Shown: one piece after another, positions 420-19,238 of the stretch
How the letters are laid out: every line of letters begins with the position of its first letter
Numbering within the stretch: the stretch's first letter is position 1
IMG/VR virus record: IMGVR_UViG_2711768054_000001
Source: a virus
Lineage: Duplodnaviria; Heunggongvirae; Uroviricota; Caudoviricetes
Strand: one strand, 5' to 3'
DNA length: 28,743 nt
Translations under genes and position numbers: made by a program
The notes under the pieces: generated by a model
Told to the model about the DNA's origin: nothing
The model's database searches: none
What the model saw: only the letters and a program-made list of their open reading frames with translations

Positions 420-2138
420 ATGATTTTTAGGGATAGCTTGAGAGTATTTCCTTATGGTCGAGTAGATAATGATTTCTTCCAGATAGAAGAAAGACGTTCA
501 TGGAATGCAGGGCGATATTATTGGTCTAATAGAAGGATTTTTGGTTATATTGGAATTACTCAATCCAGTAATAAAGAGCTGAAAGATAAGTCGGGGAGAG
601 AGGGATTCATAAGAAACCAGGCTGCAAGAGAACTGAAAACTATTATATCTAATTTGTTAACTGAACTTGCTGATAGATTTTTTGGTTCACGTTCTGATGA
701 CCGTAAAGAGCTTTTAGAACAAGTTAAGCGTGAAAAAGAGTTAAGAAAATCTGCTCAACAACAAGCTCGAAAATCAACACAAAAAAGTTTTTCAGAAGCT
801 TTGAAGAATCAGACACCAGTTCTTGATGCTTCCTTGGAGGCTGTTAAAAGGCTGAAAACTAAGCTTGATAAAACTGATGGTTCGTTAGATTTAAACTATC
901 TTAAAATTATAGACAGTGATCTTACAAACTTAGATGCGTTGCGCAGTGAAATTAAAACGCCTATCAAACCTCCAAAACTTGGAATGTATGAAGAGAAATA
1001 TAGAGACTACAGAGATAAATTTAATGAGTTCTCTGCGTATATTCTACAAATGAAGTTAGCAATTAATAAACTTGATTCTGAATTAAATAAACTTGAGCCT
1101 TCATTGTCAGCGAAAAATCACCTTGAAAAAAATCAAGGTATTATTAATTCTAAACTAACTAAGTTTAATAACACGATAGAGGAGAAGATACATTCTCTTT
1201 TAAAAAAATGGGCCGATGAAATAAAGGTTGATCGAAGTGATTATTATGCTAAAACTATATCAGTTGTTGATTCAATAGATAATGATTCACAAATTGAAAA
1301 TGTGTTTAATTTGCTCGATAGTTTATATGTTGAGTCAGTTGATACCCTAACTTTCAAATATCAATCAATAATAAAAGGTCTCGATAGATTATTTGAAGGT
1401 ATAAACTTAGATTCAGCATTCTCATTATCTGAAGAAGAACGCTCATATTTTGAAGAAAAAGCTAAAAGTTTAAACGCGCTTGCACAGTTAGGTATTAGTG
1501 TTGAGATAATATCTCATGAACTTGAAGAAATGGATTCTATGGTAACCAGAGGACTAAACTCTCTTCCTACTTCTGTAAAAGAACACCCTGGTTTTTCATT
1601 GGCGTTAAATGCTCACAGATCGCTTACTCAACAAATACGTTTCTTATCACCTTTGAAAATATCAGGTTATCAATCCAGGCAGAGAATAACTGGAAAAAAT
1701 ATCATGGATTATGTCCTGAAGTTCTTTGGGGAGCGTTTCGAACGGCAACGAATAACTATTGAATTTAGTGAAGAGTTTAAGCAAATCGCAATAACAGATA
1801 TACCATCAAGGATCTATCCTGTTTTTACTAATATTATCAACAATGCAATGTATTGGGTCAGTCTGTCAAATAATAGGCTCATAAAGATTGGTTTTGTGAA
1901 TTCTTTGGTTATCATAGCAAATTCTGGTCCGGCAATTGATACCGATGATATCCCGCGACTATTTGAACTATTTTATAGCAAAAGAGCAAATGGACATGGG
2001 GTAGGTCTGTATCTATGTCGAGAAAACCTTGCTGTTGCACATCATAAAATATGGTATTCAGAACCTGATGAAGGCGATAACTATTTAATAAAAGATGGCG
2101 CTAATTTTGTGATCCAGTTCAATGGAGTGGAGTTCTAA
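420..2138 (+). CDS. Histidine-kinase-like ATPase (DHp + HATPase_c), apparently 5-prime truncated by the IS3 insertion
   Basis: ORF of 572 aa. Putative H-box ISVEIISHELEEMDSM, N-box NIINNAMYW and G-box GHGVGLYLCRENLA near the C-terminus; the N-terminal 330 aa are K/E-rich and look coiled-coil. The reading frame stays open upstream from 420 back to 294, right at the IS3 end, and there is no convincing RBS before the ATG at 420. GC content is visibly low. Confidence 0.55.
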   Translation: MIFRDSLRVFPYGRVDNDFFQIEERRSWNAGRYYWSNRRIFGYIGITQSSNKELKDKSGREGFIRNQAARELKTIISNLLTELADRFFGSRSDDRKELLEQVKREKELRKSAQQQARKSTQKSFSEALKNQTPVLDASLEAVKRLKTKLDKTDGSLDLNYLKIIDSDLTNLDALRSEIKTPIKPPKLGMYEEKYRDYRDKFNEFSAYILQMKLAINKLDSELNKLEPSLSAKNHLEKNQGIINSKLTKFNNTIEEKIHSLLKKWADEIKVDRSDYYAKTISVVDSIDNDSQIENVFNLLDSLYVESVDTLTFKYQSIIKGLDRLFEGINLDSAFSLSEEERSYFEEKAKSLNALAQLGISVEIISHELEEMDSMVTRGLNSLPTSVKEHPGFSLALNAHRSLTQQIRFLSPLKISGYQSRQRITGKNIMDYVLKFFGERFERQRITIEFSEEFKQIAITDIPSRIYPVFTNIINNAMYWVSLSNNRLIKIGFVNSLVIIANSGPAIDTDDIPRLFELFYSKRANGHGVGLYLCRENLAVAHHKIWYSEPDEGDNYLIKDGANFVIQFNGVEF

Positions 2139-2139
2139 T

Positions 2140-3888
2140 ATGACAGTGGCAAATTATAATTCTCTTGTCCAGAAAACTTTCTGCGAAAATGCAATTCGTT
2201 CCGTTGTCATGATTGATGACGATTTTCTGACGTATTCTGAATCAATCAGGGCGTTGAATAACGAAGTTGATTTAGACTACAACAAAATTGACTCATCTAA
2301 ACGAGCCGCTACTCTTGAGAGCTTTTTTCAATCTAAAAATATGATTTGTGATGTTGACAATGGTTCTGTTAATTTCGATGTGGATCGGATTAGAAAATCA
2401 GATCTTATTATTGTAGATTATCATCTTGATAATAATGCACCTGATAAAACACTTAAACTATTACAAGATTTGAAAGACTCCGATCATTTAAATATGGTTG
2501 TAATATATACTAGAGAGAATTTAGAAACGGTTTGGATGCAGATATCATCGACTCTCAAAGGTGCTCTGGATATCAACAGCTTGATCATTGACTACGATAA
2601 TGAAGATGTCCAAAGTTATTGGGAAGACGTTGTATTACCGAACTTAAATGATAATGGTAATAAAGCTCTCACAAGAGATGAAACAATAGCCTATATTAAA
2701 GACAGTAAGCCTTGTAGAAGAATTAAAAGATTAATACATGATGATGCTGTGTTGGAGGATCAAAAGGATAAAAACTTCATTGCAAAAATGATTGCAGAAT
2801 ATGCTGTGTCTAGAAATGCAATTATTTCTAGCAACACATCTGGCAATGTCATTCGGGGTGATGAAAGCGGAGTAAAATGGATTCAATGTGGTAATATCTT
2901 TGTCTCCCTATTTCATAAGGTTCAAGATGATCATGAAAACGATGGAGATAGGATTTGGCAAACTCTCAATGATTCTCTCATTGAATGGAAACCATCTTAT
3001 TATCAGTTAATAAAATCTGAAATTCAGAATGCAATCGAAGCTGAGGCTTTATCTTTTGTAAATCATTTGGCTAACGATCATTACGGTCAAGCTGCGTGGT
3101 TAAATGAGATATTAAAATCAGACTCGCCTGATATTAGATGTAGAAATATTGACTTTGTATTTGGTAATTTATCAGAAGAGCTTTATCAAAGACTTAAAAA
3201 TAATAATACGCTGGATGAATTTATCAAAAGTGTTTTTGATAGCTATTCAAATGAATACGCTAACAGCGGAGTTGCTGCATTGCTCCAATATTGCTCTTCA
3301 AAAATGGATCTGCCATCAAATAATGATACTTATCACGAAATGTATCATGCTTTAAATATGAATTTGTCTTCAAAGAATTTTGAAGATGGTCATATTTCTA
3401 CTGGCACTATTTTCTTTGATACAGAGTCGAACAAATGGTATTTATGTGTATCTGCGGCATGTGATTTGGTTCCTACTCAGGGTAACGACCCTCACCATGT
3501 AAGATTAAGTCCGCACAGGCTCATTAAAGTTCTGGAGCTTTTTAACGCCAGTCAGAGTAAAGCATTGCCATTTGCTGAACATTCGAAATATATATATGTA
3601 ATGCATAAAAATCAAAGAAAATATCTCTCTATTTTCGAAGGGGATAAAACGCTTCCTGTTGTTGATTATATGGTGGTGTTGAATCATGGAACAACAGTTG
3701 ATGGCGAAGAAAAAAATATTATTTCTGCCGTGTTTTTAAGTAATATGGATGGCAACGTGCAAAATGTTCCTGTCCGACTCAAACTTAAATCTCAACTGAG
3801 AACTGGTTATGCAGAAAGATATCAGGCTATAGCGTCTCAGTATAGCTCAAGGATTGGTGTGGATTATGTATCAATGATGCTACCATAA
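2140..3888 (+). CDS. Receiver (REC) domain protein with a ~450-aa C-terminal domain of unknown function
   Basis: N-terminus carries the response-regulator receiver signature: VVMIDDDF (acidic pair), LIIVDYHLD (putative phospho-acceptor Asp), MVVIYTRE (conserved Thr). RBS GGAGTGGAG at 2124-2132; ATG at 2140 lies one base after the upstream stop, suggesting translational coupling. AT-rich. No DNA-binding output domain recognisable. Confidence 0.6.
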   Translation: MTVANYNSLVQKTFCENAIRSVVMIDDDFLTYSESIRALNNEVDLDYNKIDSSKRAATLESFFQSKNMICDVDNGSVNFDVDRIRKSDLIIVDYHLDNNAPDKTLKLLQDLKDSDHLNMVVIYTRENLETVWMQISSTLKGALDINSLIIDYDNEDVQSYWEDVVLPNLNDNGNKALTRDETIAYIKDSKPCRRIKRLIHDDAVLEDQKDKNFIAKMIAEYAVSRNAIISSNTSGNVIRGDESGVKWIQCGNIFVSLFHKVQDDHENDGDRIWQTLNDSLIEWKPSYYQLIKSEIQNAIEAEALSFVNHLANDHYGQAAWLNEILKSDSPDIRCRNIDFVFGNLSEELYQRLKNNNTLDEFIKSVFDSYSNEYANSGVAALLQYCSSKMDLPSNNDTYHEMYHALNMNLSSKNFEDGHISTGTIFFDTESNKWYLCVSAACDLVPTQGNDPHHVRLSPHRLIKVLELFNASQSKALPFAEHSKYIYVMHKNQRKYLSIFEGDKTLPVVDYMVVLNHGTTVDGEEKNIISAVFLSNMDGNVQNVPVRLKLKSQLRTGYAERYQAIASQYSSRIGVDYVSMMLP

Positions 3889-3959: not shown

Positions 3960-4376
3960 TTATTTTTGTTTAAGTCTTCTAAGCTTCATGCATTCTAATG
4001 AGAATAATAATAGAGTTGTGCTGTATATAAAGCCAGAGTTAGTTAATAACTTTAAATTTAATGCTTCAGGATTTTCACTGAGAAAGTGAAAGGCATAAAC
4101 TAAGTATACAGCTAAAGTAGCCGTTCCAATTGTTGGTCCAATATCGCCTTGATCATGAGGTTCAAGGTTTACATTGAACTTGAAGATTAGCCATTCAAAT
4201 CCCCAAGTAAAAAAAACAACTAATATCATGGCTGCGAATAATTTCGCGATGTTATCTGCTGATGGATTCATCAGAACAGATTGTTTCTGAAAAAATTCAC
4301 AAAGTGAGAGTCCGAAAAAAATAAAAAAAAGTGGTCTGGAACTAAATTTTTCAAAAACTTTGAATAGGGTTTCCAT
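3960..4376 (-). CDS. Small multi-pass membrane protein (138 aa), unknown function
   Basis: ATG at 4376 preceded on the minus strand by RBS AAGGTAAAG; translation shows about four hydrophobic helices (LFFIFFGLSL, AAMILVVFFTWGF, TATLAVYLVYAF, FIYSTTLLLF); AT-rich. Confidence 0.5.
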   Translation of the reverse strand: METLFKVFEKFSSRPLFFIFFGLSLCEFFQKQSVLMNPSADNIAKLFAAMILVVFFTWGFEWLIFKFNVNLEPHDQGDIGPTIGTATLAVYLVYAFHFLSENPEALNLKLLTNSGFIYSTTLLLFSLECMKLRRLKQK

Positions 4377-4414: not shown

Positions 4415-5644
4415 TTAGGCTACCAGAGCATTTGATCTTTGAGCTTGAACGTAATCACTCCACCATTGCATCAAACTCTGTCGCTCTATCAGATATTCTG
4501 CACGATTGTATGCTGCGATAATTTCATCTTTTTTCGAGTGGGCAAGCGCTGCCTCAAGAACTTCAGCTCTGAATTTACCAGACTCCTCTGCCGCTGTTCG
4601 TGCAATAGAACGCATACCGTGAGCTACAAGCTCGCCTCCGAACCCCATTCGGATGATAGCTGCGTTGGCTGTTTGTTCATGCATATGATTAAGAGGCGCT
4701 TTTATGCTGGGGAAAACCCATTCTCTATGCCCACTTATTGATTTCATTAATTCAAGGATGCGCAAAGCTTCTTTACTCAAAGGAACTTTGTGAAGCTTTT
4801 TCATTTTCATGAAATCAGCAGGAATGTTCCAAATGCTGTTGGTTGTATCAATATCAGACCACCTTGCGCGAACGGCTTCACCCGGACGAACCCATGTCAA
4901 CAATTGCCATTCAATTAGCATACGTGTTTCCAACCGGATTGACGCATTCGTCAAAGATTCCATAAACCTTGGCAATTCGCTTGGGGGAAGGGCAGGCATA
5001 TTTTGCTTTTTTGGTTTACTGAATCTTTGACCAAGGTTGTCAGCCGGGTTGAACTCAATAAGTTCTTCAGTAGCTGCCCACCGGAAGATTTCATTCAGAC
5101 GTGAAATGATACGGCGTAGAGTTTCCAATACGCCTCGTTGCTCAATAGGATCAAGGTGTTGTTTTAAGAGCTTAGGTCGGATCTCATTGATAGGGACATT
5201 ACCCAGACCGGGAAAGACATTTCTCTCTAAGCTGCGCCAGATGTCTGCTGCATGGTCTTGTGAGATACCTGATGTCTTTACCTTCTCATCTAACCATTTC
5301 CGCGCTACGGCTTGGAGAGTGTGCTCAGTAGCACTCTTTAATGCCTTCGCCTTATCGTTGTTATGGATTTGGGGATCAACACCATTTGCCAGAAAGGAGA
5401 GATATTCATCACGTAAGGCTCTGGCTCTTGCAAGGGTAAGGTGAGGATATGTCCCAAGGCTCATTTTGGTTCTTTTCTTGCTCACTGGTACTGCATACCT
5501 GAAATACCAATTTTTCTTGCCTCCTTTCGCCAAAGGAGCGATTCGTAGAATCAGACCATCACCGTCAAACAAGTTGATTTCTTTATCGGCTGGCTTGGTG
5601 CTTTTGATTTCAGTGTCAGTGAGCTTCTTAGCGATTTTTGCCAT
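4415..5644 (-). CDS. int: P4/CP4-57-family tyrosine integrase
   Basis: Translation MAKIAKKLTDTEIKSTKPADKEINLFDGDGLILRIAPLAKGGKKNWYFRY... has the typical P4-type integrase N-terminus, and the C-terminal half contains the R...H..R...Y catalytic region (HGMRSIARTAAEE, EAALAHS, Y in AAYNRAEY). I take the ATG at 5644 as the start; the ORF-track start at 5686 would add a GPK/GPT-repeat extension encoded by GGACCC DNA repeats. Confidence 0.85.
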   Translation of the reverse strand: MAKIAKKLTDTEIKSTKPADKEINLFDGDGLILRIAPLAKGGKKNWYFRYAVPVSKKRTKMSLGTYPHLTLARARALRDEYLSFLANGVDPQIHNNDKAKALKSATEHTLQAVARKWLDEKVKTSGISQDHAADIWRSLERNVFPGLGNVPINEIRPKLLKQHLDPIEQRGVLETLRRIISRLNEIFRWAATEELIEFNPADNLGQRFSKPKKQNMPALPPSELPRFMESLTNASIRLETRMLIEWQLLTWVRPGEAVRARWSDIDTTNSIWNIPADFMKMKKLHKVPLSKEALRILELMKSISGHREWVFPSIKAPLNHMHEQTANAAIIRMGFGGELVAHGMRSIARTAAEESGKFRAEVLEAALAHSKKDEIIAAYNRAEYLIERQSLMQWWSDYVQAQRSNALVA

Positions 5645-5809
5645 TTTGGGACCCTCGGTTTTTGGACCCTTCTTAGTGGGTCCCATTCAGGGTGCCATAA
5701 CTCGTAGTTCTCAGCAATTCTCACTGGACGACAATAGACGTAAAAAAGCCCGCAGAGCTTGTGCTGTGTGGGCTTAGTAGACTTCATTGAACTTCAAACA
5801 ACTAAAAAG

Positions 5810-5970: not shown

Positions 5971-6954
5971 CTAATTCCTATCAGCAGGTAGAATTGCTGG
6001 GTAGAGCTTAGAGCAATCATTGCCATAGTCAGGGATAAAGTCCCATAGCCCTTTTGGCGTTTGGAAGACCTCAGGGCTTAAGCCAATCAGCATATAAACA
6101 TGAACTAACAGCTCGCGCAATCCAGTGACCATTTGCTTTATTTGTTTTTCATCAGAGAAAGAAGTGGTGAAGGGTTTTTCTTCAATGGAGTCAAAAAGAA
6201 TAAACTCATGTTTTTCATATCGATAGTCGATCCCTAATTCTCTGCAAAGTTGGATAATATTGATTTCGAGCATTTGAAGGGAAATCACTTGGATATCATA
6301 AGAAGTCTCTTTGTTGTAACAGCTTTTAATAGCTTTGTTGATATTCTTATAATAATCTTGAACTCTACCCATAAATAATGAACTTATTTCTTTGCTATAG
6401 CCTTCTTCAATAGAGGATTTTGTAAAAATATTCATGTAAAGAATATAAGGGTGAGAAATGGAAAGTTCTATATATTTTTTTCCATCATCGTGTTCGGTAA
6501 ACTCTCTACTAACGATAAATGAAGGGACGGTTTTAAAAATATCGGCATAACTCTTCTGGTGGGCATAAAATGAATCAGATTTATTTTTTGCTTTTACCAG
6601 CTCTATTTGATGCTCTGTCCTTGAAAGCTGCGTCTCTGTTTGAATGGTCCTGTGAATATTCTTAACTATAGCTCCAAGAGGTACTGAACTGGCTAGCAGC
6701 ATTAGAGGGAATTTACTGATTTCGTAAAAGCGAGTATAGCCGTGGGCACTTAACACCGGGACCTTGCCCCACCATGCGAAAATCCCAAAATAAAAGAATG
6801 ATAATACTGGTATTCCGATTGATAACCAGAATAATTTCTGTTTTATAAGGTTTTGTTCATTTAATAAATACCACTTGTATTTATATGTTAAATACAATAT
6901 GTATATTAACATTACAACATAGAACATAATGCCAATTGATGAATAAAGGGTCAT
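5971..6954 (-). CDS. Membrane protein of unknown function (327 aa); AT-rich cargo gene downstream of the P2-type integrase
   Basis: N-terminal hydrophobic helices (IGIMFYVVMLIYILYL, LFWLSIGIPVLSFFYFGIFAWWG, LMLLASSVPLGAIV) followed by a ~220-aa soluble domain. The start ATG (6954-6952, minus strand) overlaps the int stop (6953-6951) as ATGA. GC content is clearly lower than the flanking phage genes. Confidence 0.6.
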   Translation of the reverse strand: MTLYSSIGIMFYVVMLIYILYLTYKYKWYLLNEQNLIKQKLFWLSIGIPVLSFFYFGIFAWWGKVPVLSAHGYTRFYEISKFPLMLLASSVPLGAIVKNIHRTIQTETQLSRTEHQIELVKAKNKSDSFYAHQKSYADIFKTVPSFIVSREFTEHDDGKKYIELSISHPYILYMNIFTKSSIEEGYSKEISSLFMGRVQDYYKNINKAIKSCYNKETSYDIQVISLQMLEINIIQLCRELGIDYRYEKHEFILFDSIEEKPFTTSFSDEKQIKQMVTGLRELLVHVYMLIGLSPEVFQTPKGLWDFIPDYGNDCSKLYPAILPADRN

Positions 6955-7979
6955 GCTTTTTTCCAGTCTAATTTGTAAAGTGGATTTTTTGTTACAGCAT
7001 CTTCCAAGTGATCAGGGGCAAAGTGAGCGTAAACCATCGTCATTTTTATATCAGCATGGCCCAGAATATCGCGCAGTACCAGTATATTTCCGCCGTTCAT
7101 CATAAAATGGCTGGCGAATGTATGGCGCAGTACGTGGGTGCACTGGCCCTCTGGCAGTTCGATACCGGCTCGCTTTACTGCACGCTCAAAGGATTTTCTG
7201 CATGGGGTAAATAATCTCCCCCTGTTTTTAGGTAGTTCGTCATACAGTTCTTGAGATATTGGAACGGTTCGGTTTTTTTTACCTTTGGTCTTGGTATAAG
7301 TAATGCGATATTTTGATAACTGATGCCCTTGCAGGTTTTCTGCTTCACTCCATCGGGCACCAGTTGCTAGGCATATTTTTGCAATCATCAACAGACTGGG
7401 ACTCTGAGAATCAGCACAGGCATCCAGTAGGCGTTTAATTTCTTCCGGGGTCAGGAATGCTAGTTCACCCTCAGCGATTTTAAATGTTGGCAGCCCGACG
7501 AGAGGATTTGGTGCTGACCAGTGGCCTAGTTTTTTCAATGTGCCGAAAACCGATGATAGGTTACGTTGCTCAAGATTCACCGTGCGTGGTTTTACTGGCG
7601 ACATTAGTGTGCCGTCTTCGTTACGAAGGTCACCTTTTAACCGTGCTTCGCGGTATTTCGTAAAGTCTCCGGCTGTCAGTTCTGAGGCGATGGGGTCGCC
7701 TAGACCATTACAGATAATTCTAAGTTTCGCCATGAGGCGCTTGGGGTCTGCGAGTGTCTGACCATACAGGGAATACCAAAGCTCAATTAACTCTGATAGG
7801 CGTCGCCGATCATCCTTTTCACCCAACCACGGTTTTTTATTCACTTCTTCCATTGTGAAGCTTTCAAACGCAATGGCTTCGCCTTTCGTGGCAAATTGCT
7901 TACGCACGCGCTTGCCATTGCGTCCATTGGGATAGCACTCACACAACCATTTTCCGTTCGGCTGTTTTCTGATGGTCAT
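6951..7979 (-). CDS. int: P2-type tyrosine integrase
   Basis: 342 aa, MTIRKQPNGKWLCECYPNGRNGKRVRKQFATKGEAIAFE...; C-terminus has ARWSE...HVLRHTFASHFMMNGGNILVLRDILGHADIKMTMVYAH (R-H-R-Y motifs). Size and sequence resemble P2/186 Int. Confidence 0.9.
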   Translation of the reverse strand: MTIRKQPNGKWLCECYPNGRNGKRVRKQFATKGEAIAFESFTMEEVNKKPWLGEKDDRRRLSELIELWYSLYGQTLADPKRLMAKLRIICNGLGDPIASELTAGDFTKYREARLKGDLRNEDGTLMSPVKPRTVNLEQRNLSSVFGTLKKLGHWSAPNPLVGLPTFKIAEGELAFLTPEEIKRLLDACADSQSPSLLMIAKICLATGARWSEAENLQGHQLSKYRITYTKTKGKKNRTVPISQELYDELPKNRGRLFTPCRKSFERAVKRAGIELPEGQCTHVLRHTFASHFMMNGGNILVLRDILGHADIKMTMVYAHFAPDHLEDAVTKNPLYKLDWKKA

Positions 7980-10808: not shown

Positions 10809-11662
10809 GCACCATCCTGAAATGGGCGGGAAATAAAACCGCCATTATGTCCGAACTGAAAAAGCATCTTCCTGCTGGCCCGCGACTGGTTGAACCTTTC
10901 GCGGGTTCCTGTGCAGTGATGATGGAGACGGAGTACCCCAGCTATCTTGTTGCGGATATTAATCCTGATTTAATCAACCTCTATAAAAAGGTTGCTGCTG
11001 ATTGTGAATCATTTATATCTCGCGCCAGAGTTTTATTTGAGATCGCAAACAGGGAGGTAGCTTATTACAACATAAGGCAGGAGTTTAATTACTCAACTGA
11101 AATTACTGATTTCATGAAAGCGGTATATTTCCTGTATCTCAATCGTCACGGTTACCGTGGTTTATGTCGCTATAACAAGAGCGGGCATTTCAACATTCCC
11201 TACGGTAATTATAAAAATCCGTATTTCCCTGAAAAAGAAATTCGCGCATTTGCAGAAAAAGCCCAGCGAGCAACGTTTATCTGCGCCAGCTTTGATGAAA
11301 CGCTGGCGATGTTGAAGGCGGGGGATGTGGTGTATTGCGATCCGCCGTATGACGGTACGTTTTCCGGCTATCACACTGATGGTTTCACTGAAGATGACCA
11401 GTATCACCTGGCATCCGTTCTTGAACATCGGTCATCAGAAGGACATCCGGTCATTGTTTCTAACAGTGACACATCCCTGATCCGTTCGCTGTATCGCAAT
11501 TTTACTCACCACTATATCAAGGTAAAACGCAGCATCGGTGTGGCAGCTGGCGAGGGTAAATCAGCAACAGAAATCATTGCTGTTTCCGGGCCGCGCTGCT
11601 GGTTGGGATTTGATTATTCGCGTGGCGTGGATAGTTCTGCCGTGTACGGAGTGCGTGCATGA
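10805..11662 (+). CDS. dam: DNA adenine (N6) methyltransferase, Dam-like
   Basis: Motif I PFAGSCAV and catalytic DPPY ([12 protein letters not shown]); ATGA overlap with the upstream stop; RBS GGAGGTG. Confidence 0.85.
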
Positions 11663-14073
11663 GCCATGCTGATATGAACAACTGCAGCGGCTTTAACGAG
11701 GCCGCCGCAGCATTCTCATGGAACAGCCCGAAAAAGGCTATTAACCCTTATCTGGACCCGGCGGAAGTTGCGCCGGTTTCTGCGCTTTCAAACCTGATCA
11801 CTCTGTACGCTGCCGATAACGAGCAGGAACAACTGCGCCGCGAGGCACTGAGTGATCAGGTCTGGGAGCGTTATTTCTTTAATGAATCCCGTGATCCTGT
11901 CCAACGCGAAATGGAGCAGGATAAGCTCATTAGCCGGGCAAAGCTGGCGCATGAGCAGCAGCGTTTTAATCCGGACATGGTCATACTGGCGGACGTTAAA
12001 GCCCAGCCCTCCCATATCAGCAAGCCGCTGATGCAACGTATTGAATACTTCAGCAGCCTGGGCAGGCCAAAGGCTTATTCCCGCTATTTGCGTGAGACGA
12101 TTAAGCCATGTCTGGAACGACTGGAGCATGTACGCGACAGTCAGCTATCCACTTCTTTTCGCTTTATGGCAAGCCATGAAGGGCTGGACGGCCTGCTGAT
12201 CCTGCCTGAAATGAGTCAGGATCAGGTGAAACGCCTGTCTACTCTTGTCGCTGCGCATATGAGCATGTGTCTTGATGCCGCTTGTGGTGATTTGTACGCC
12301 ACCGATGATGTTAAGCCAGAAGAAATCCGCAAGACATGGGAAAAGGTGGCAGCAGAAACCCTGCGACTGGATGTCATACCGCCTGCGTTTGAGCAACTCC
12401 GCCGGAAAAGAAACCGCCGTAAACCCGTACCCTATGAACTCATTCCGGGTTCGCTGGCGCGTATGTTGTGCGCCGACTGGTGGTATCGGAAATTATGGAA
12501 GATGCGTTGCGAATGGCGGGAAGAGCAGTTGCGTGCTGTTTGCCTGGTCAGCAAAAAAGCATCTCCCTATGTCAGCTATGAAGCCGTGATGCATAAACGT
12601 GAGCAGCGCCGTAAGTCGCTGGAGTTTTTCCGTTCTCATGAACTGGTGAACGAAGACGGCGATACGCTGGATATGGAGGACGTGGTAAACGCCAGTAGTA
12701 GCAACCCGGCGCATCGCCGCAATGAGATGATGGCATGTGTTAAAGGTCTGGAGCTTATCGCGGAAATGCGCGGTGACTGCGCCGTTTTCTACACCATCAC
12801 CTGTCCGTCACGTTTCCATTCCACGCTAAATAACGGCAGGCCCAACCCAACCTGGACAAATGCGACGGTAAGACAAAGCAGTGATTATCTGGTCGGCATG
12901 TTTGCTGCATTTCGTAAGGCGATGTACAAAGCCGGATTGCGCTGGTATGGCGTGCGGGTGGCTGAGCCGCATCATGACGGTACAGTTCACTGGCACCTGT
13001 TGTGTTTTATGCGCAAAAAAGATCGCCGCGCCATTACTGCTTTGTTGCGTAAGTTTGCCATTCGTGAAGACCGCGAGGAGCTGGGTAATAACACAGGACC
13101 ACGCTTTAAGTCTGAGCTGATAAACCCGCGCAAAGGTACGCCAACAAGCTACATCGCGAAATACATCAGTAAGAACATTGACGGGCGTGGTCTGGCTGGC
13201 GAGATCAGCAAGGAAACGGGTAAATCCCTGCGTGATAACGCTGAATACGTTAATGCCTGGGCGTCTCTTCATCGTGTTCAGCAATTCCGCTTCTTTGGCA
13301 TTCCGGGGCGTCAGGCTTACCGTGAACTGCGATTGCTGGCTGGTCAGGCGGCAAGGCAACAGGGGGACAAAAAAGCAGGTGCGGCGGTACTGGATAACCC
13401 GCGCATTGATGCCATCCTGGCTGCTGCTGATGCTGGTTGTTTTGCCACCTACATCATGAAGCAGGGCGGCGTACTGGTTCCCCGCAAATATCACCTCATC
13501 AGAACCGCTTATGAAATCAACGAAGAGCCGACCGCCTATGGCGATCACGGCATTCGTATTTATGGCATCTGGTCACCCATTGCAGAGGGCAAGATCTGCA
13601 CTCATGCAGTGAAGTGGAAAATGGTTCGTAAGGCCGTTGACGTTCAGGAGGCGGCAGCCGACCAGGGCGCTTGCGCCCCTTGGACTCGTGGCAATAACTG
13701 TCCCCTTGCTGAAAATTTGAACCAACAGGAGAAAGATAAATCAGCTGATGGGGACCCCAGAACGGACATTACCAGCATGGATGACAAGGAGTTGCACGAT
13801 TACCTGCACAGTATGAGCAAAAAAGAGCGCCGGGAACTGGCAGCAAGGTTACGCCTGGTGAAACCGAAACGGCGTAAAGACTACAAACAGCGAATTACAG
13901 ACCATCAGCGACTGCAGCTCGTGTATGAGCTGAAGTCCAGAGGATTTGATGGCAGCGAGAAAGAGGTCGATTTACTCCTTCGCGGAGGCAGTATTCCGTC
14001 AGGAGCAGGCCTGCGTATCTTCTATCGGAACCAGCGTTTGCAGGAAGATGATCAGTGGCGGAACCTGTATTAA
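11659..14073 (+). CDS. A: Replication initiation endonuclease (P2 gpA-like rolling-circle initiator)
   Basis: 804 aa; HUH-type motif TVHWHLLCF and tyrosine motif [12 protein letters not shown]; size and position match P2/186 gene A. Confidence 0.9.
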
Positions 14074-14226: not shown

Positions 14227-14415
14227 ATGCAGGACTATTTTTTGGAGTCTTTGAAGCTCCAGCGCATTGATTTTTTTCTTAAGCTTGTAGCGGCTAGTGA
14301 GTGTAGTGATGAAGAGAAGGGGCTGGCTCTGCAGTGGGTTTCTGAATTGACTGATGAACTCATGGCAAAAATCAGAACCCACGAATACAACCGCTCAATG
14401 GATGTCATCAGCTGA
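14227..14415 (+). CDS. Small protein (62 aa), first gene of the putative SOS-controlled operon (possible antirepressor N-terminal part)
   Basis: RBS AGGAGG immediately upstream of the ATG at 14227; about 40 bp downstream of the LexA box. Confidence 0.45.
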   Translation: MQDYFLESLKLQRIDFFLKLVAASECSDEEKGLALQWVSELTDELMAKIRTHEYNRSMDVIS

Positions 14416-14425
14416 GGTGACTTTT

Positions 14426-14659
14426 ATGCGCATTGAAATAATGATCGATAAAGAGCAGAAGATTAGCCAGTCTACCCTGGACGCCCTTGAATCCGAGCTT
14501 TACCGCAATCTGCGCCCCCTGTATCCCAAAACGGTAATTCGCATTCGCAAAGGTAGCTCTAACGGTGTGGAACTAACCGGACTGCAACTGGACGAAGAAA
14601 GAAAACAAGTGATGAAAATTATGCAGAAGGTGTGGGAAGACGACAGCTGGCTGCATTAA
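14426..14659 (+). CDS. DinI-family protein (Tum-like C-terminal module)
   Basis: 77 aa, MRIEIMIDKEQKISQSTLDALESELYRNLRPLYPKTVIRIRKGSSNGVELTGLQLDEERKQVMKIMQKVWEDDSWLH, resembles E. coli DinI in length and profile (MRIEV..., acidic C-terminus ending W-x-x-D-D-W); RBS GAGGTG. Confidence 0.75.
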   Translation: MRIEIMIDKEQKISQSTLDALESELYRNLRPLYPKTVIRIRKGSSNGVELTGLQLDEERKQVMKIMQKVWEDDSWLH

Positions 14660-14794
14660 GAAACGTTGCTGGCGTCTGAACTTGCTTCTGGCGTCAGCAA
14701 GGTTGAACAACGAGCCCTTGCGAGGCGTTAGCTCTGTAGTGCATGTCTATGCCGCATGAGATCGCATGATCGTTTGAGGATCGTTTTTGCTAAG

Positions 14795-14819
14795 GCCCGC
14801 CAGAACTGGCGGGCTTTTG
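14795..14819 (+). terminator. Rho-independent terminator
   Basis: Perfect 9-bp stem gcccgccag / ctggcgggc with a 2-nt loop, followed by TTTTG. Confidence 0.55.
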
Positions 14820-14863
14820 CGTAGATCATGCAGGTGCATGAAAACCACTACATAAAGCGGGCA

Positions 14864-14882
14864 GGCGTGGCGGGGATACGAG
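14864..14882. other. Candidate cos (cohesive end) site of the P2/186-like phage
   Basis: GGCGTGGCGGGGATACGAG matches 14 of 19 positions of the P2 cohesive end GGCGAGGCGGGGAAAGCAC, and the first 13 nt match the 186 cos as I recall it; it lies between the replication/tum region and the portal gene, where cos is expected. Confidence 0.45.
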
Positions 14883-14980
14883 CGCGCGTATTTGGTCGTT
14901 ACTTAGCTTTTTTTTATCAATAGATTAAGCTAACTTAAGTCTTTTTAGGAAAAAATATTTTTTCGTGATGAGGTAGAAAG

Positions 14981-16390
14981 ATGTCTTTTCTTGATATAAA
15001 AAAAATGAGTAAAGAGAGGTTTAATGCTTTTGTTGATTGGACCAGAATGCCAAATACTGAACTTTTAGGCTATGAGTTTGAGTGGTACTGTAGTCCGAGA
15101 GAGTTCCTGCTAGGGGCACTATTATTGGATCAAATCGATGAAGATTATAGCGGTATTGTTTTAGCAAGAGACTTAAGTGGGAGATATAGATGTATTGACC
15201 TATTTACTAGTGTTTCAGAAATGAATTCTGCACGAGCAAAACTAAAGAAATTAATGCGGAAGCATACTAAATTAAACGTAAAAGTATTTCCACAAGGTGA
15301 TGAAACTTATAAAGCAATGGATTTATTCACACCTATAGTTACACCAGATAAACTTCATCATCATTTTTCATTATTTGGTAAATACGCGAACTGGTCGCCT
15401 GCAACAGGGATAATCAAGGAAATGATGAATCATTTTGAGGATGTCGACGGGAATTTTATAGAGCAGTTTCAGACAACAGGTTTTGATGCCCGGCTATGGG
15501 AGTTATATCTTTTCGCATATTTACGAGAGGAACACTTTTGGCTAGATAGGCAGTTTAATGCTCCTGATTATGTGGCACGTAAGTATGGTAATACTATTTG
15601 CATTGAAGCTGTAACGGTTAATCCAACAGGGAATGATATTAATCAATCATCTGAAATGCTATCTGAACCTAAAAGTAAGGAAGAATTGCTAGAGAAAATA
15701 GAGAATTATATGCCGATTAAATTTGGAAGTTCTCTCTATTCTAAACTGAAAAAGAAAACTCGATACTGGGATCTAGAACATGTTAAGGGGAATCCTTTAA
15801 TTTTCGCAATTGCTGATTTTCATGAACCAAACTCTATGATTTGGTCCCATAGTGCACTTTGGCAGTATCTTTATGGTATTCGCTATGAGCATGTTAAATC
15901 TGAAGATGGATGTTACAGTTTAGCAACTAAGAAAATTATATCGCATCAATTTGAGAAAAAGGAAATTCCTTCAGGCTTTTTCTTCTTGGATGAGTCTGAA
16001 AATATTTCGGCCGTCCTTAGTTCTAATAGTGGTACTATATCGAAGTTTAATCGGATGGGAAAACTGGCTGGTTTTGGAAGAAGTGACCTTAGATTATTTA
16101 GGAGTGGTTACTGCCATGATCATGACCCAGAGGCATTATATCCAGCAGCATTTAGTTTTGAAGTGAAAGAAGGCGATATTACAGAAACATGGGCAGAAGG
16201 TTTAAATATGTATCATAATCCTAATGCTAAATATCCTGTAGATCCTGATTTATTTCCTTCAATAGCACATCATTTTCTTGAAAATGGAGAGGTTAAAAGT
16301 ATAGTGCCTGACTTTCATCCGTATACATCTATTACCATAAATGTCTTAACTCAAAATAATAAAAAACAAAAAATCAGAGTAGATGAGTAA
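14981..16390 (+). CDS. Hypothetical protein (469 aa), AT-rich cargo gene between the candidate cos site and the portal gene
   Basis: Long ORF with RBS GAGG upstream; GC content much lower than the flanking phage genes; no motif I can assign (no Walker A, no clear nuclease signature); no TM segments apparent. Confidence 0.7.
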   Translation: MSFLDIKKMSKERFNAFVDWTRMPNTELLGYEFEWYCSPREFLLGALLLDQIDEDYSGIVLARDLSGRYRCIDLFTSVSEMNSARAKLKKLMRKHTKLNVKVFPQGDETYKAMDLFTPIVTPDKLHHHFSLFGKYANWSPATGIIKEMMNHFEDVDGNFIEQFQTTGFDARLWELYLFAYLREEHFWLDRQFNAPDYVARKYGNTICIEAVTVNPTGNDINQSSEMLSEPKSKEELLEKIENYMPIKFGSSLYSKLKKKTRYWDLEHVKGNPLIFAIADFHEPNSMIWSHSALWQYLYGIRYEHVKSEDGCYSLATKKIISHQFEKKEIPSGFFFLDESENISAVLSSNSGTISKFNRMGKLAGFGRSDLRLFRSGYCHDHDPEALYPAAFSFEVKEGDITETWAEGLNMYHNPNAKYPVDPDLFPSIAHHFLENGEVKSIVPDFHPYTSITINVLTQNNKKQKIRVDE

Positions 16391-16410
16391 TTAATTAGGT
16401 TTATTCTTGT

Positions 16411-16433
16411 TAACCACCTCATAGAGGTGGTTA
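16411..16433. terminator. Bidirectional hairpin terminator between convergent genes
   Basis: Perfect inverted repeat taaccacctc - ata - gaggtggtta between the stop of the 469-aa gene (+) and the stop of portal Q (-). Confidence 0.5.
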
Positions 16434-16437
16434 TTAA

Positions 16438-17472
16438 TTAGTCTAGGGATAGTTGATATTCTTTGAATGTAATAATATTATTTTTTAGCCATAAATTTAA
16501 TTCTTCGAAACGTTTTTGCAAAGGTATTAATTCATTACGAACAAATACCCGACTTGCCTTCTCCACATCCCCAAACCCCCCGACATTATTAGGCATAATC
16601 CCCATCATTTGCGGCGGCACTCGGTGTGCTGCCATCATGTCATCGCGGCTCACGTTCTTGATATTCAGAAACTCATCCTTCGCTGCGACTTCTGACAACG
16701 GGATAATCTGAAGTCCGTCTTTTTTACCATTAGGCGAGTACATAAACAGATTGCGGAAGTTGCCAGGGCCTTTGGCGCTTTTCATCGCATTGCGGAGGTT
16801 GTTCACATCCTCCTGGTTCTGCGCGGCATCGGTCATGTACATGATGAAGCCTGCATGACTGCCGTTAATGTAATACTTGCGGCGGAACAGCGTGGCGGAC
16901 TCGTTGAGCAGGGCGGACGGAATGGCAGAAAGATAACCGGGCAGGCCGTAGATCTCCTGGTTGATGTCCGGCTCCATCAGATGAAAAATGCTGCCTTTCG
17001 TGAACTGATACGGCTGGGTTGTCATACCGTATTGCACAAACCAGTAGGTATCCAGGTCTAACCCGCGTCGGGTGTATTTTGCCAGGGCAGGTTCAAGGGC
17101 GATAACTTCACCGAAGCGGTTCGTGCGTTTCTCCAGGTAGGCGTTACCAAATACCAGATAGTCCTGCACAAAACGCGAAAAAGCCTGCTGGCTGAGCAGC
17201 GGGTGAGGGATGTAGGTGCTGGTCAGAATGTTGCACTTTACTGCAATCGGGGAACTATGATGCACGGCAGCGCGGAAGGTGCGCGCCAGTCCGTCAAAGC
17301 TGACGGGCGGCTCATACCAGCGGTCCATCTGTACGCATTCCACATAATCCAGCAGTTCTCGGCGGTCCAGAACAGGAACGGGATCGCCGAAGCTGAATGC
17401 TTCGGCTGAAGTCTGGCTTTTATGCTGAATCTGGTTCGTCGATGCAGCGCGGTTCTTCTTACTCTTTCCCAT
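16438..17472 (-). CDS. Q: Portal protein (P2 gpQ-like)
   Basis: 344 aa, the size of P2 gpQ; lies downstream of terminase P on the same strand with start and stop overlapping (TGATG). I place the ATG at 17472; the ORF-track start at 17475 is TTG. Confidence 0.9.
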   Translation of the reverse strand: MGKSKKNRAASTNQIQHKSQTSAEAFSFGDPVPVLDRRELLDYVECVQMDRWYEPPVSFDGLARTFRAAVHHSSPIAVKCNILTSTYIPHPLLSQQAFSRFVQDYLVFGNAYLEKRTNRFGEVIALEPALAKYTRRGLDLDTYWFVQYGMTTQPYQFTKGSIFHLMEPDINQEIYGLPGYLSAIPSALLNESATLFRRKYYINGSHAGFIMYMTDAAQNQEDVNNLRNAMKSAKGPGNFRNLFMYSPNGKKDGLQIIPLSEVAAKDEFLNIKNVSRDDMMAAHRVPPQMMGIMPNNVGGFGDVEKASRVFVRNELIPLQKRFEELNLWLKNNIITFKEYQLSLD

Positions 17473-19238
17473 CAAAAAATCTCCACAATATTGCTGGTAT
17501 TGGCGGACTCGCCCTGCAGCGGTTCGTTAAACAGTGCGTGCATTGTTGCCCAGGCCAGATCGGCATGGCTGGCTTCTTCGCTGCGGCTGGCTTCATAGGT
17601 CGGGCGGTTGCCGCTGGCGGTGGTGGCGCGACGGATTGCCATAAATGACTGCGCTATGTCGGTGTGTCCGGCGTCAAACTCCAGACGACGGTGACTGATA
17701 ATGTCGTAGGCTTTGAGTACCAGGGCATTTTTAACGTTGGGGTTGTAGACAAACTCCCGGACGGCAGGAAAGAACGCTTTCACGTTCTCGTAAACCCCGT
17801 GACCGACACCTGTCGAGTCGATGCCGATGTATGTCACGTTGTACTGTTCGGTCAGTTTTTTGATGGCGTCAGCCTGGGCGCGGAAGTCCATCCCGCGCCA
17901 CTGGTGACGCTCAAGAATGCGGAACTTACCGCCCGGCACGGCTGGCGGTGCCACCACCACGCACCCGGCGCTGTCGCCGTTTTGCGTACCTTTTGCCGGG
18001 TCATAACCGATCCACACTTCGCGCCAGCCAAACGGGCGCAGGGCCAGTGCATGAAAGTCGGTCCAGACTTCCCAACTGTCCACCATGCACGCCTGCAGCT
18101 CGCTGAGCGGGAACACGGACGCGAGATCGTCCACGAACTCACACATCAGCAGGTTCTGGTATTCGTCCGGGCTGTACTCCATGCGCAACTGATCGAGGTC
18201 GAACAGGTTACAGCCGCCGCGCACCGCATCTTCCACGGTGACTATCTGGCGGTATTGCCCGTCTGCGCACAGCAGGCCGGGGGCCAGATTGCTGTGGGAC
18301 AGGTCGATGTCCACCTTGTCAGCTTTGTTGCGCCCACGGTTGAACAGCGCACCGGACCAGAACGGATAAGCACTGTGGGTCAGACTGGATGGTGTGGAAA
18401 AATAGGTCTGCCGCCATTTCTTGTGAATAGCCATACCGGAAGCCACTTTGCGTAGCTCCTGAAATTTCGGTATCCAGAAATATTCATCCAGATACAGGTT
18501 GCCGTGATAACTCTGGGCCGTGCGGGCATTGGTGCCGAGGAAGTAAAGCGTGGCCCCGTTAGGAAGCACCATCGGATCGCCTTTCAGCTCCACCTCCACT
18601 TCTTTGGAGAAGTCGATGATGTACTGCTTAAAGACGTGGGCCTGTGCCTTACTGGCGGAAAGGAAAATCTGGTTACGCCCGGTAAGCAGGGCGTCAATCA
18701 GGGCTTCACGGGCAAAGTAAAAGGTCGCGCCGATCTGGCGTGACTTCAGCAGGTTGCGGATGCGGTTGGTTTTTCCGGCTTCCCACCAGTGGCGCTGGTA
18801 GTTGAACATGGAGGAATGGAAGATTTCTTCCAGCTTCTCAATCTGCTCATCGGTGAAAACATTCTTTTCCGGCTGACGGCGTGGGCCTTTATTGCGGTTG
18901 GCGACGTTAGGGTTTAAGTCGGCTTCGTTGCCGCCATTGTTAAACTTGCCGATCCGCGCGTGGCGCTCCGACTGGCGCGCCAGCAGGTCAATCTCTTTGA
19001 AATCTTTCCCTTCTTTGTGCTCCTTCATGATGAGCTGGCAGTAGCGTGCGGCGGTGGTGAGCTGCATCTGATCCAGCGGCCCATAGTCACCCCACTTGTC
19101 GCGTTTTTTCCAGCTGTGAACGGTTGCAACTTTCTCGCCCAGCATTTCAGCAATGCGGGCTACGCGGTATCCCTGAAAGTACAGCAGCATGGCCTGCCGA
19201 CGGGGATCGAGATCTGCGGGTGTCAGTGTGGTGTTCAT
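17472..19238 (-). CDS. P: Terminase large (ATPase) subunit (P2 gpP-like)
   Basis: 588 aa; Walker-A-like RQIGATFYFAREA; divergently transcribed from the capsid operon as in P2. Confidence 0.9.
   Translation of the reverse strand: MNTTLTPADLDPRRQAMLLYFQGYRVARIAEMLGEKVATVHSWKKRDKWGDYGPLDQMQLTTAARYCQLIMKEHKEGKDFKEIDLLARQSERHARIGKFNNGGNEADLNPNVANRNKGPRRQPEKNVFTDEQIEKLEEIFHSSMFNYQRHWWEAGKTNRIRNLLKSRQIGATFYFAREALIDALLTGRNQIFLSASKAQAHVFKQYIIDFSKEVEVELKGDPMVLPNGATLYFLGTNARTAQSYHGNLYLDEYFWIPKFQELRKVASGMAIHKKWRQTYFSTPSSLTHSAYPFWSGALFNRGRNKADKVDIDLSHSNLAPGLLCADGQYRQIVTVEDAVRGGCNLFDLDQLRMEYSPDEYQNLLMCEFVDDLASVFPLSELQACMVDSWEVWTDFHALALRPFGWREVWIGYDPAKGTQNGDSAGCVVVAPPAVPGGKFRILERHQWRGMDFRAQADAIKKLTEQYNVTYIGIDSTGVGHGVYENVKAFFPAVREFVYNPNVKNALVLKAYDIISHRRLEFDAGHTDIAQSFMAIRRATTASGNRPTYEASRSEEASHADLAWATMHALFNEPLQGESANTSNIVEIF

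Follow-up and report, generated by a model that had tools for sequence, protein, structure and literature searches.

PD-T7-1 and PD-T7-5 are single-gene anti-phage systems that were recovered by functional selection in Escherichia coli, as set out in the portion of the report by Vassallo et al. that is drawn on here (2022, PMC9519451). The same portion gives the validated PD-T7-1 protein as RCQ85672.1 of strain ECOR46, describes stronger protection against T-even phages than against T7, and traces the "nuclease" label of the system to weak HHpred similarity to Hjc (80% probability, residues 177-219). Its authors see no resemblance to type IV systems in the orphan DNase-like proteins and acknowledge as an open question how these proteins spare the host (PMC9519451, same portion). 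A PD-T7-1 copy of the uropathogenic E. coli isolate NILS69 gives K-12 protection against a Teseptimavirus and makes T7 plaques smaller, as stated in an excerpt of a further study (PMC12409345). The literature searched yielded no nuclease activity or biochemical data for any PD-T7-1 member.

The cos-proximal slot between gpA and gpQ of P2-like prophages is a described defence hotspot (Rousset et al. 2022, PMC9122126). The protein WP_000008839 is entered as "hypothetical" in the catalogue of this hotspot (Table S5A of PMC9122126). We analyzed a 28,743-nucleotide stretch of viral DNA, referred to here as the window, in which a gene at 14981-16390 (+ strand) encodes a 469-aa protein identical to WP_000008839, with an ATG start in the ORF listing. 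We consider it very probable that this ORF encodes a main-clade PD-T7-1 single-gene defence protein and predicted metal-dependent nuclease, carried on a horizontally acquired cassette in the cos-to-portal hotspot of a P2/186-like prophage. No published test of this allele was found in the literature searched.

Family assignment

The protein matches the PADLOC model for PD-T7-1 (PDLC04073) from end to end, with residues 7-457 aligned to profile positions 2-449 of 452 (E 1.3e-196, 651.7 bits). On this model, scores of 607-662 bits were obtained for ten other family members; the window protein lies inside this range and is thus a typical member. A search with PADLOC had been recommended in an earlier, sequence-only reading of the window, which could assign no motif to the protein; the full-length match contradicts that statement. 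The same reading had proposed a candidate for a new anti-phage function. The anti-phage part of this proposal agrees with the PD-T7-1 assignment, but the function is not new, as the family is published. On profile homology, the protein is a member of the PD-T7-1 family. The gene is already known through a published, validated family and a published hotspot, and it is detected by standard defence-annotation models.

Two other assignments were rejected. The match to PD-T7-5 (PADLOC PDLC04110), a paralogous family that is likewise validated, is secondary, covering residues 113-436 only (E 1.4e-56, 190 bits versus 652 for PD-T7-1). The two proteins have in common the nuclease-like core, the C-terminal region and defence by a single gene, whereas PD-T7-5 is devoid of the ~105-aa N-terminal module present in the window protein. 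The protein likewise does not qualify as a type IV restriction enzyme: it has no recognizable modified-base reader, and scans of all 469 residues against Pfam and NCBIfam gave no meaningful match at E up to 1. Searches of PHROGs returned an unnamed family only. The source label of relatives, "glycosaminoglycan attachment site protein", received no support in any search and was disregarded.

The family is broad. Among 1.84 billion representative proteins, 1778 relatives were found at E up to 1e-3, including 452 at E up to 1e-30, and relatives occur in 324 species-representative genomes from many phyla. Their genes are usually lower in GC than the flanking DNA (median 6.4 points). Mobile defence cargo typically has a low GC of the kind seen in the window gene and its relatives. 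Inspection of 80 loci for a conserved partner gene gave none: no neighbour family is present in more than 5 of the 80, and the commonest neighbours are integrases (5/80 loci).

Relation to the validated protein and distribution of alleles

The validated PD-T7-1 locus was located through its published cloning primers (Table S8 of PMC9519451). Both primers match exactly on one IMG/VR contig (L104), giving an amplicon of 1697 bp with a single 449-aa ORF. The amplicon holds 302 bp upstream and 45 bp downstream of this ORF, equal to the offsets in Table S2 of the paper. Neither primer matches the window. It had been suspected that the ECOR46 reference was itself the window allele, since only the latter was returned when complete E. 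coli genomes were searched with distant blastn; the primer mapping refuted this. RCQ85672.1 is absent from the cluster listing. The 90%-identity cluster of WP_000008839 includes Salmonella enterica sequences.

The window protein and the 449-aa validated-type protein are homologous over their full length (BLASTP, 31% identity and 50% positives over 453 residues, E 6e-72). They are alike in their three-part layout, in the E, PD, E-A, K and D residues of the core, and in being single genes of mobile elements. On the PD-T7-1 model the window protein scores 652 bits versus 510 for the validated type. By these comparisons, the window protein is a divergent allele belonging to the larger, cross-phylum main clade of the family, and the validated type stands outside that clade. 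The two also differ in their genomic setting: the window gene occupies the cos-Q slot of a P2-like prophage, whereas the validated type lies in an integrase-associated element with an upstream 64-aa ORF that, read by eye, is ribbon-helix-helix-like (1506-1700 of L104, + strand). This small ORF falls within the 302-bp upstream segment of the validated clone, so that the published construct of a single gene with its native promoter may also carry a small regulator. No counterpart of this ORF is present at the window locus.

The window allele is found in 25 of 5426 complete E. coli genomes, always in this slot and always annotated "hypothetical protein". A 449-aa type related to the validated one, at 60% identity, is present in 201 of the 5426 and in several phage records. 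The exact window protein is indexed in 2388 blocks of a public assembly collection and occurs in thousands of assemblies; the 28 contigs that were read are from E. coli assemblies. In 23 of the 25 complete genomes the ORF is intact and 99.8-100% conserved. The remaining two copies, in the broiler-chicken isolates E. coli 33-6 and 58-3, are interrupted by IS1. In E. coli S88, where the gene is again annotated hypothetical, replication gene A next to it carries a frameshift in the annotation (locus L001, 2934-5374). Given the IS1 interruptions and the frameshifted gene A, some carriers are probably defective prophages.

Locus organization and cassette borders

The backbone of the window is that of a P2/186-like prophage, comprising an integrase, a CI-type repressor, gpA, a 62-aa ORF, a DinI-like gene, the cargo gene, Q and P. 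Replication gene A spans 11659-14073 and is followed by the 62-aa ORF (14227-14415, + strand), which matches only the unnamed phrog_698, and by the DinI-like gene (14426-14659). The portal gene Q (16438-17475) lies on the minus strand, and the terminase gene P is likewise opposite in strand to the cargo. The equivalent of the cos cohesive end, GGCGTGGCGGGGATACGAG, is at 14864-14882 (+ strand). It was aligned to the annotated cosR 19-mer of P2 (NC_001895), to which it is identical at 14 of 19 positions, and the upstream flank can also be aligned. With the backbone genes identified and cos mapped, the earlier placement of the gene in the P2-like variable slot between the gene A region and Q is confirmed. 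The locus thus has the make-up of hotspot cargo, namely a variable gene beside cos, between gpA and gpQ, in a P2-like prophage. The ORF at 14981-16390 is intact and is the only long ORF in the cos-Q interval; as a lone ORF with no obligatory partner, it has the form of a single-gene system.

Like the window gene, old and tin of P2 are lysogenic-conversion defence cargo of the cos-proximal region between genes A and Q. They differ in that they lie on the gene A side of cos and point leftward, whereas the window gene lies on the Q side and points rightward, and there is no sequence relation between them. In P2-like prophages, cos lies between two adjacent variable slots. For example, one E. coli locus (L083) has both filled, with a DUF4145 gene in the DinI-cos slot (1873-2613) and the PD-T7-1-like gene in the cos-Q slot. 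In other E. coli genomes, the DinI-cos slot (14660-14888 in the window) holds an insert of ~720 bp with a hypothetical or DUF8087 gene.

The cassette begins at 14889, 6 bp past cos, and extends into the 3' end of Q. On the left, similarity to ~1280 E. coli genomes with P2-like prophages stops sharply at 14888, and the published PD-T4-7-R cloning primer matches the window up to the same position and diverges beyond it. On the right, similarity to other P2-like prophages is regained within the portal gene, at a point that varies (16453-16556). The 3' end of Q (16438-16529, minus strand) is at GC 0.24 versus 0.53 for the rest of the gene and forms the right recombination junction. The variable resumption of homology and this low GC together indicate that the last ~30 codons of Q travel with the cassette. 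The right junction of a defence cassette is thus inside an essential structural gene. No direct repeats flanking the cassette were found, which makes site-specific insertion unlikely; homologous recombination in the flanks is a better fit. The cos-Q flanks are conserved in ~1280 of the 5426 complete E. coli genomes, compared with 25 for the cargo.

Two hairpins are present around the gene, and both fold far better than shuffled controls. The first is G+C-rich and terminator-like, followed by UUUUG (14792-14817, + strand; dG -23.4 kcal/mol, z -4.3). It falls within a stretch that is conserved up to 14888 in ~1280 E. coli genomes, and this conservation places it in the P2-like phage backbone 5' of cos, not in the cassette. 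The second, located where the cargo and portal genes converge, is a perfect hairpin with a 10-bp stem (16411-16433, z ~-4.6), with a dG of -15.4 kcal/mol on the plus strand and -14.7 kcal/mol on the minus strand and a poor U-tract on both. The gene had been described as insulated by terminators on either side. The two hairpins are real, but the upstream one does not belong to the cassette.

Composition separates the cargo from the prophage sharply, as had been observed before: the ORF has a GC of 0.35 and a GC3 of 0.26, against 0.53 and 0.57 for gene A, 0.57 and 0.71 for terminase gene P, and a GC of ~0.53-0.57 for the backbone. Its leader, with the first bases of the variable cassette, is at 14889-14980 (+ strand) and includes a GAGG Shine-Dalgarno sequence at 14970-14973, 7 nt 5' of the ATG, in line with the earlier mention of a separate ribosome-binding site. 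The ATG at 14981 is further backed by family alignments, which are conserved from residue ~5 onward. The leader had also been called promoter-like. This was not confirmed: two promoter scans of 14889-14980 gave no sigma-70-like site at 9/12 or 8/12 matches, and the leader is simply AT-rich. Expression in the lysogen can accordingly only be presumed. Rfam and tRNA scans of the whole window were empty.

A leader of this kind, the terminator-like backbone hairpin upstream and the IS1 insertions in 2 of 25 genomes are what would be expected if the gene were silent or non-defensive cargo, either an unexpressed passenger or a gene serving the phage, such as in packaging near cos. We regard this as very unlikely. 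Against it stand the near-complete conservation of the intact ORF and its occurrence across so many assemblies, and individual relatives adjoin Gabija-like genes or lie within satellite-like elements. None of the 80 loci of relatives from other species has P2-like A, Q or P genes nearby, which argues that the gene is not a packaging component.

Predicted structure and active site

A confident AlphaFold2 model was obtained from a 50-sequence alignment (pLDDT 88.7, pTM 0.89). It begins with an alpha+beta module of ~105 aa (residues 1-105, 14981-15295, + strand) that is modeled at a pLDDT of 76-97 and contains the invariant residues R22, E32, D53, D55, D64 and R70. The match to PD-T7-5 begins at residue 113 and thus leaves this module out. 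A restriction-endonuclease-like, PD-(D/E)xK-type core (residues ~150-300, 15428-15880, + strand) is followed by a conserved beta-rich C-terminal region (residues ~301-457, 15881-16351, + strand) with the motifs SGTISKFNRMG and ETWAEGLxMxHNPNA; this region belongs to the part held in common with PD-T7-5.

The arrangement of these parts varies within the family. Among the best 150 representatives, 80 have the layout of the window protein, 31 consist of the core only, and at least 15 are permuted, with the N-terminal module at the C-terminus. In one permuted protein (P0186), for example, residues 362-460 align to residues 6-105 of the window protein, and a second (P0239) is permuted as well. Since the module may stand at either end of the core or be missing, it appears to be autonomous. 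No description of domain permutation in the PD-T7-1 family was found in the literature searched.

The core follows the order helix 168-183, strand 197-201, strand 204-213, helix 233-256 and strand 273-279 in the model. E174 is placed in a helix, P195-D196 in a strand and E209-A210 in a strand. None of these residues varies in an alignment extending to clades at 31-35% identity, and the same is true of K255 and D279. The best structural neighbours of the core are the small PD-(D/E)xK nucleases VRR-NUC/FAN1, archaeal Hjc/Hje and XisH. Similarity to them is only moderate, though the helix Glu, the strand-start Asp and the Glu of the next strand are at the canonical places. Foldseek searches of the PDB gave nothing significant, with no match below E 0.1, and the match to Hjc is local only (probability 0.72, 33% identity over 39 columns). 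No PDB entry was matched by sequence or profile, and there is no solved structure for any family member. With moderate confidence, the model points to a restriction-endonuclease-like fold of the PD-(D/E)xK superfamily.

The active-site motif is non-canonical. Position 211, two residues past E209, is V, T, S, I or A across the family and never K, so that the lysine of (D/E)xK is replaced throughout by a small or hydrophobic residue. K255, which is invariant and located where the following helix ends, may be a plausible stand-in. An invariant acidic triad with a lysine elsewhere is the pattern expected of a live PD-(D/E)xK metal-binding site in which the lysine has been relocated. The family-wide loss of the canonical lysine and the modest structural resemblance to nucleases could also be read as signs of a catalytically dead pseudo-nuclease that acts through binding, such as the sequestration of phage DNA or of a phage protein. 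The invariance of E174, D196, E209, K255 and D279 across phyla argues against this, and we judge a dead core to be distinctly unlikely.

Proposed function

The most likely function of the protein is that of a stand-alone defence nuclease against superinfecting phages. In a lysogen, the nucleic acid of the superinfecting phage would be attacked by this protein in a metal-dependent nuclease reaction. The ~105-aa N-terminal module and the conserved C-terminal region would serve in target sensing or regulation rather than in catalysis. We infer the nuclease activity, its substrate and the sparing of the host alike.

The protein might instead be an abortive-infection effector, inactive until infection and then degrading host and phage nucleic acid indiscriminately, with death of the cell. 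In the functional screen, 12 of the 21 systems behaved in this way, as given in the portion of the paper used here (PMC9519451). The locus has no methylase or other self-marking partner, and the separate N-terminal module could be an infection sensor. However, direct immunity was reported there for 7 of the 11 nuclease-like systems (PMC9519451), and the sequence holds nothing that separates the two modes. The abortive mode is accordingly put forward as a tentative and rather doubtful alternative to the stand-alone defence nuclease.

The way in which such a defence nuclease would discern self allows for a more specific conjecture. Its structural neighbours are structure-specific nucleases, PD-T7-1 targets include both modified (T-even) and unmodified (T7-like) phages, and no methylase is present. 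These observations would be compatible with a reading of DNA structure. PD-T7-1 proteins might cut the branched replication and recombination intermediates that these phages make in bulk, with the ~105-aa module, found at either end of the core in different relatives, as a possible sensor or gate. We offer this as an idea that is unlikely to hold.

For annotation, the analysis closes a gap: a gene that RefSeq lists as "hypothetical protein" in all genomes examined can be recognized as a PD-T7-1-type defence gene. As a main-clade allele 31% identical to the tested one, it is a good second representative for biochemistry, and the domain permutation and the non-canonical active-site motif could guide experiments. 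Biologically, it is an ordinary find that adds little.

Other features of the window

The window contains further AT-rich genes. At the integrase end of the prophage, a 327-aa ORF (5971-6954, minus strand; GC 0.34) has a start that overlaps the stop of the prophage integrase gene (6951-7979). Searches of this ORF against Pfam, NCBIfam and PADLOC gave no match, and PHROGs returned only the unnamed phrog_17460; it represents a second cargo gene without assignment. A 138-aa ORF (3960-4376, minus strand), which matches only the unnamed phrog_6556, lies beside a P4-type integrase (4415-5686, minus strand). This integrase is also adjoined by an AT-rich pair of genes (420-3888, + strand; GC 0.29-0.36) with no PADLOC match. 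The product of the first gene of the pair (572 aa) carries HEF_HK and HATPase_c histidine-kinase domains; that of the second (588 aa) has a Response_reg_2 receiver domain at its N-terminus, followed by ~400 residues without a domain match. The pair may form a separate island abutting the prophage and is a candidate for an uncharacterized conflict system.
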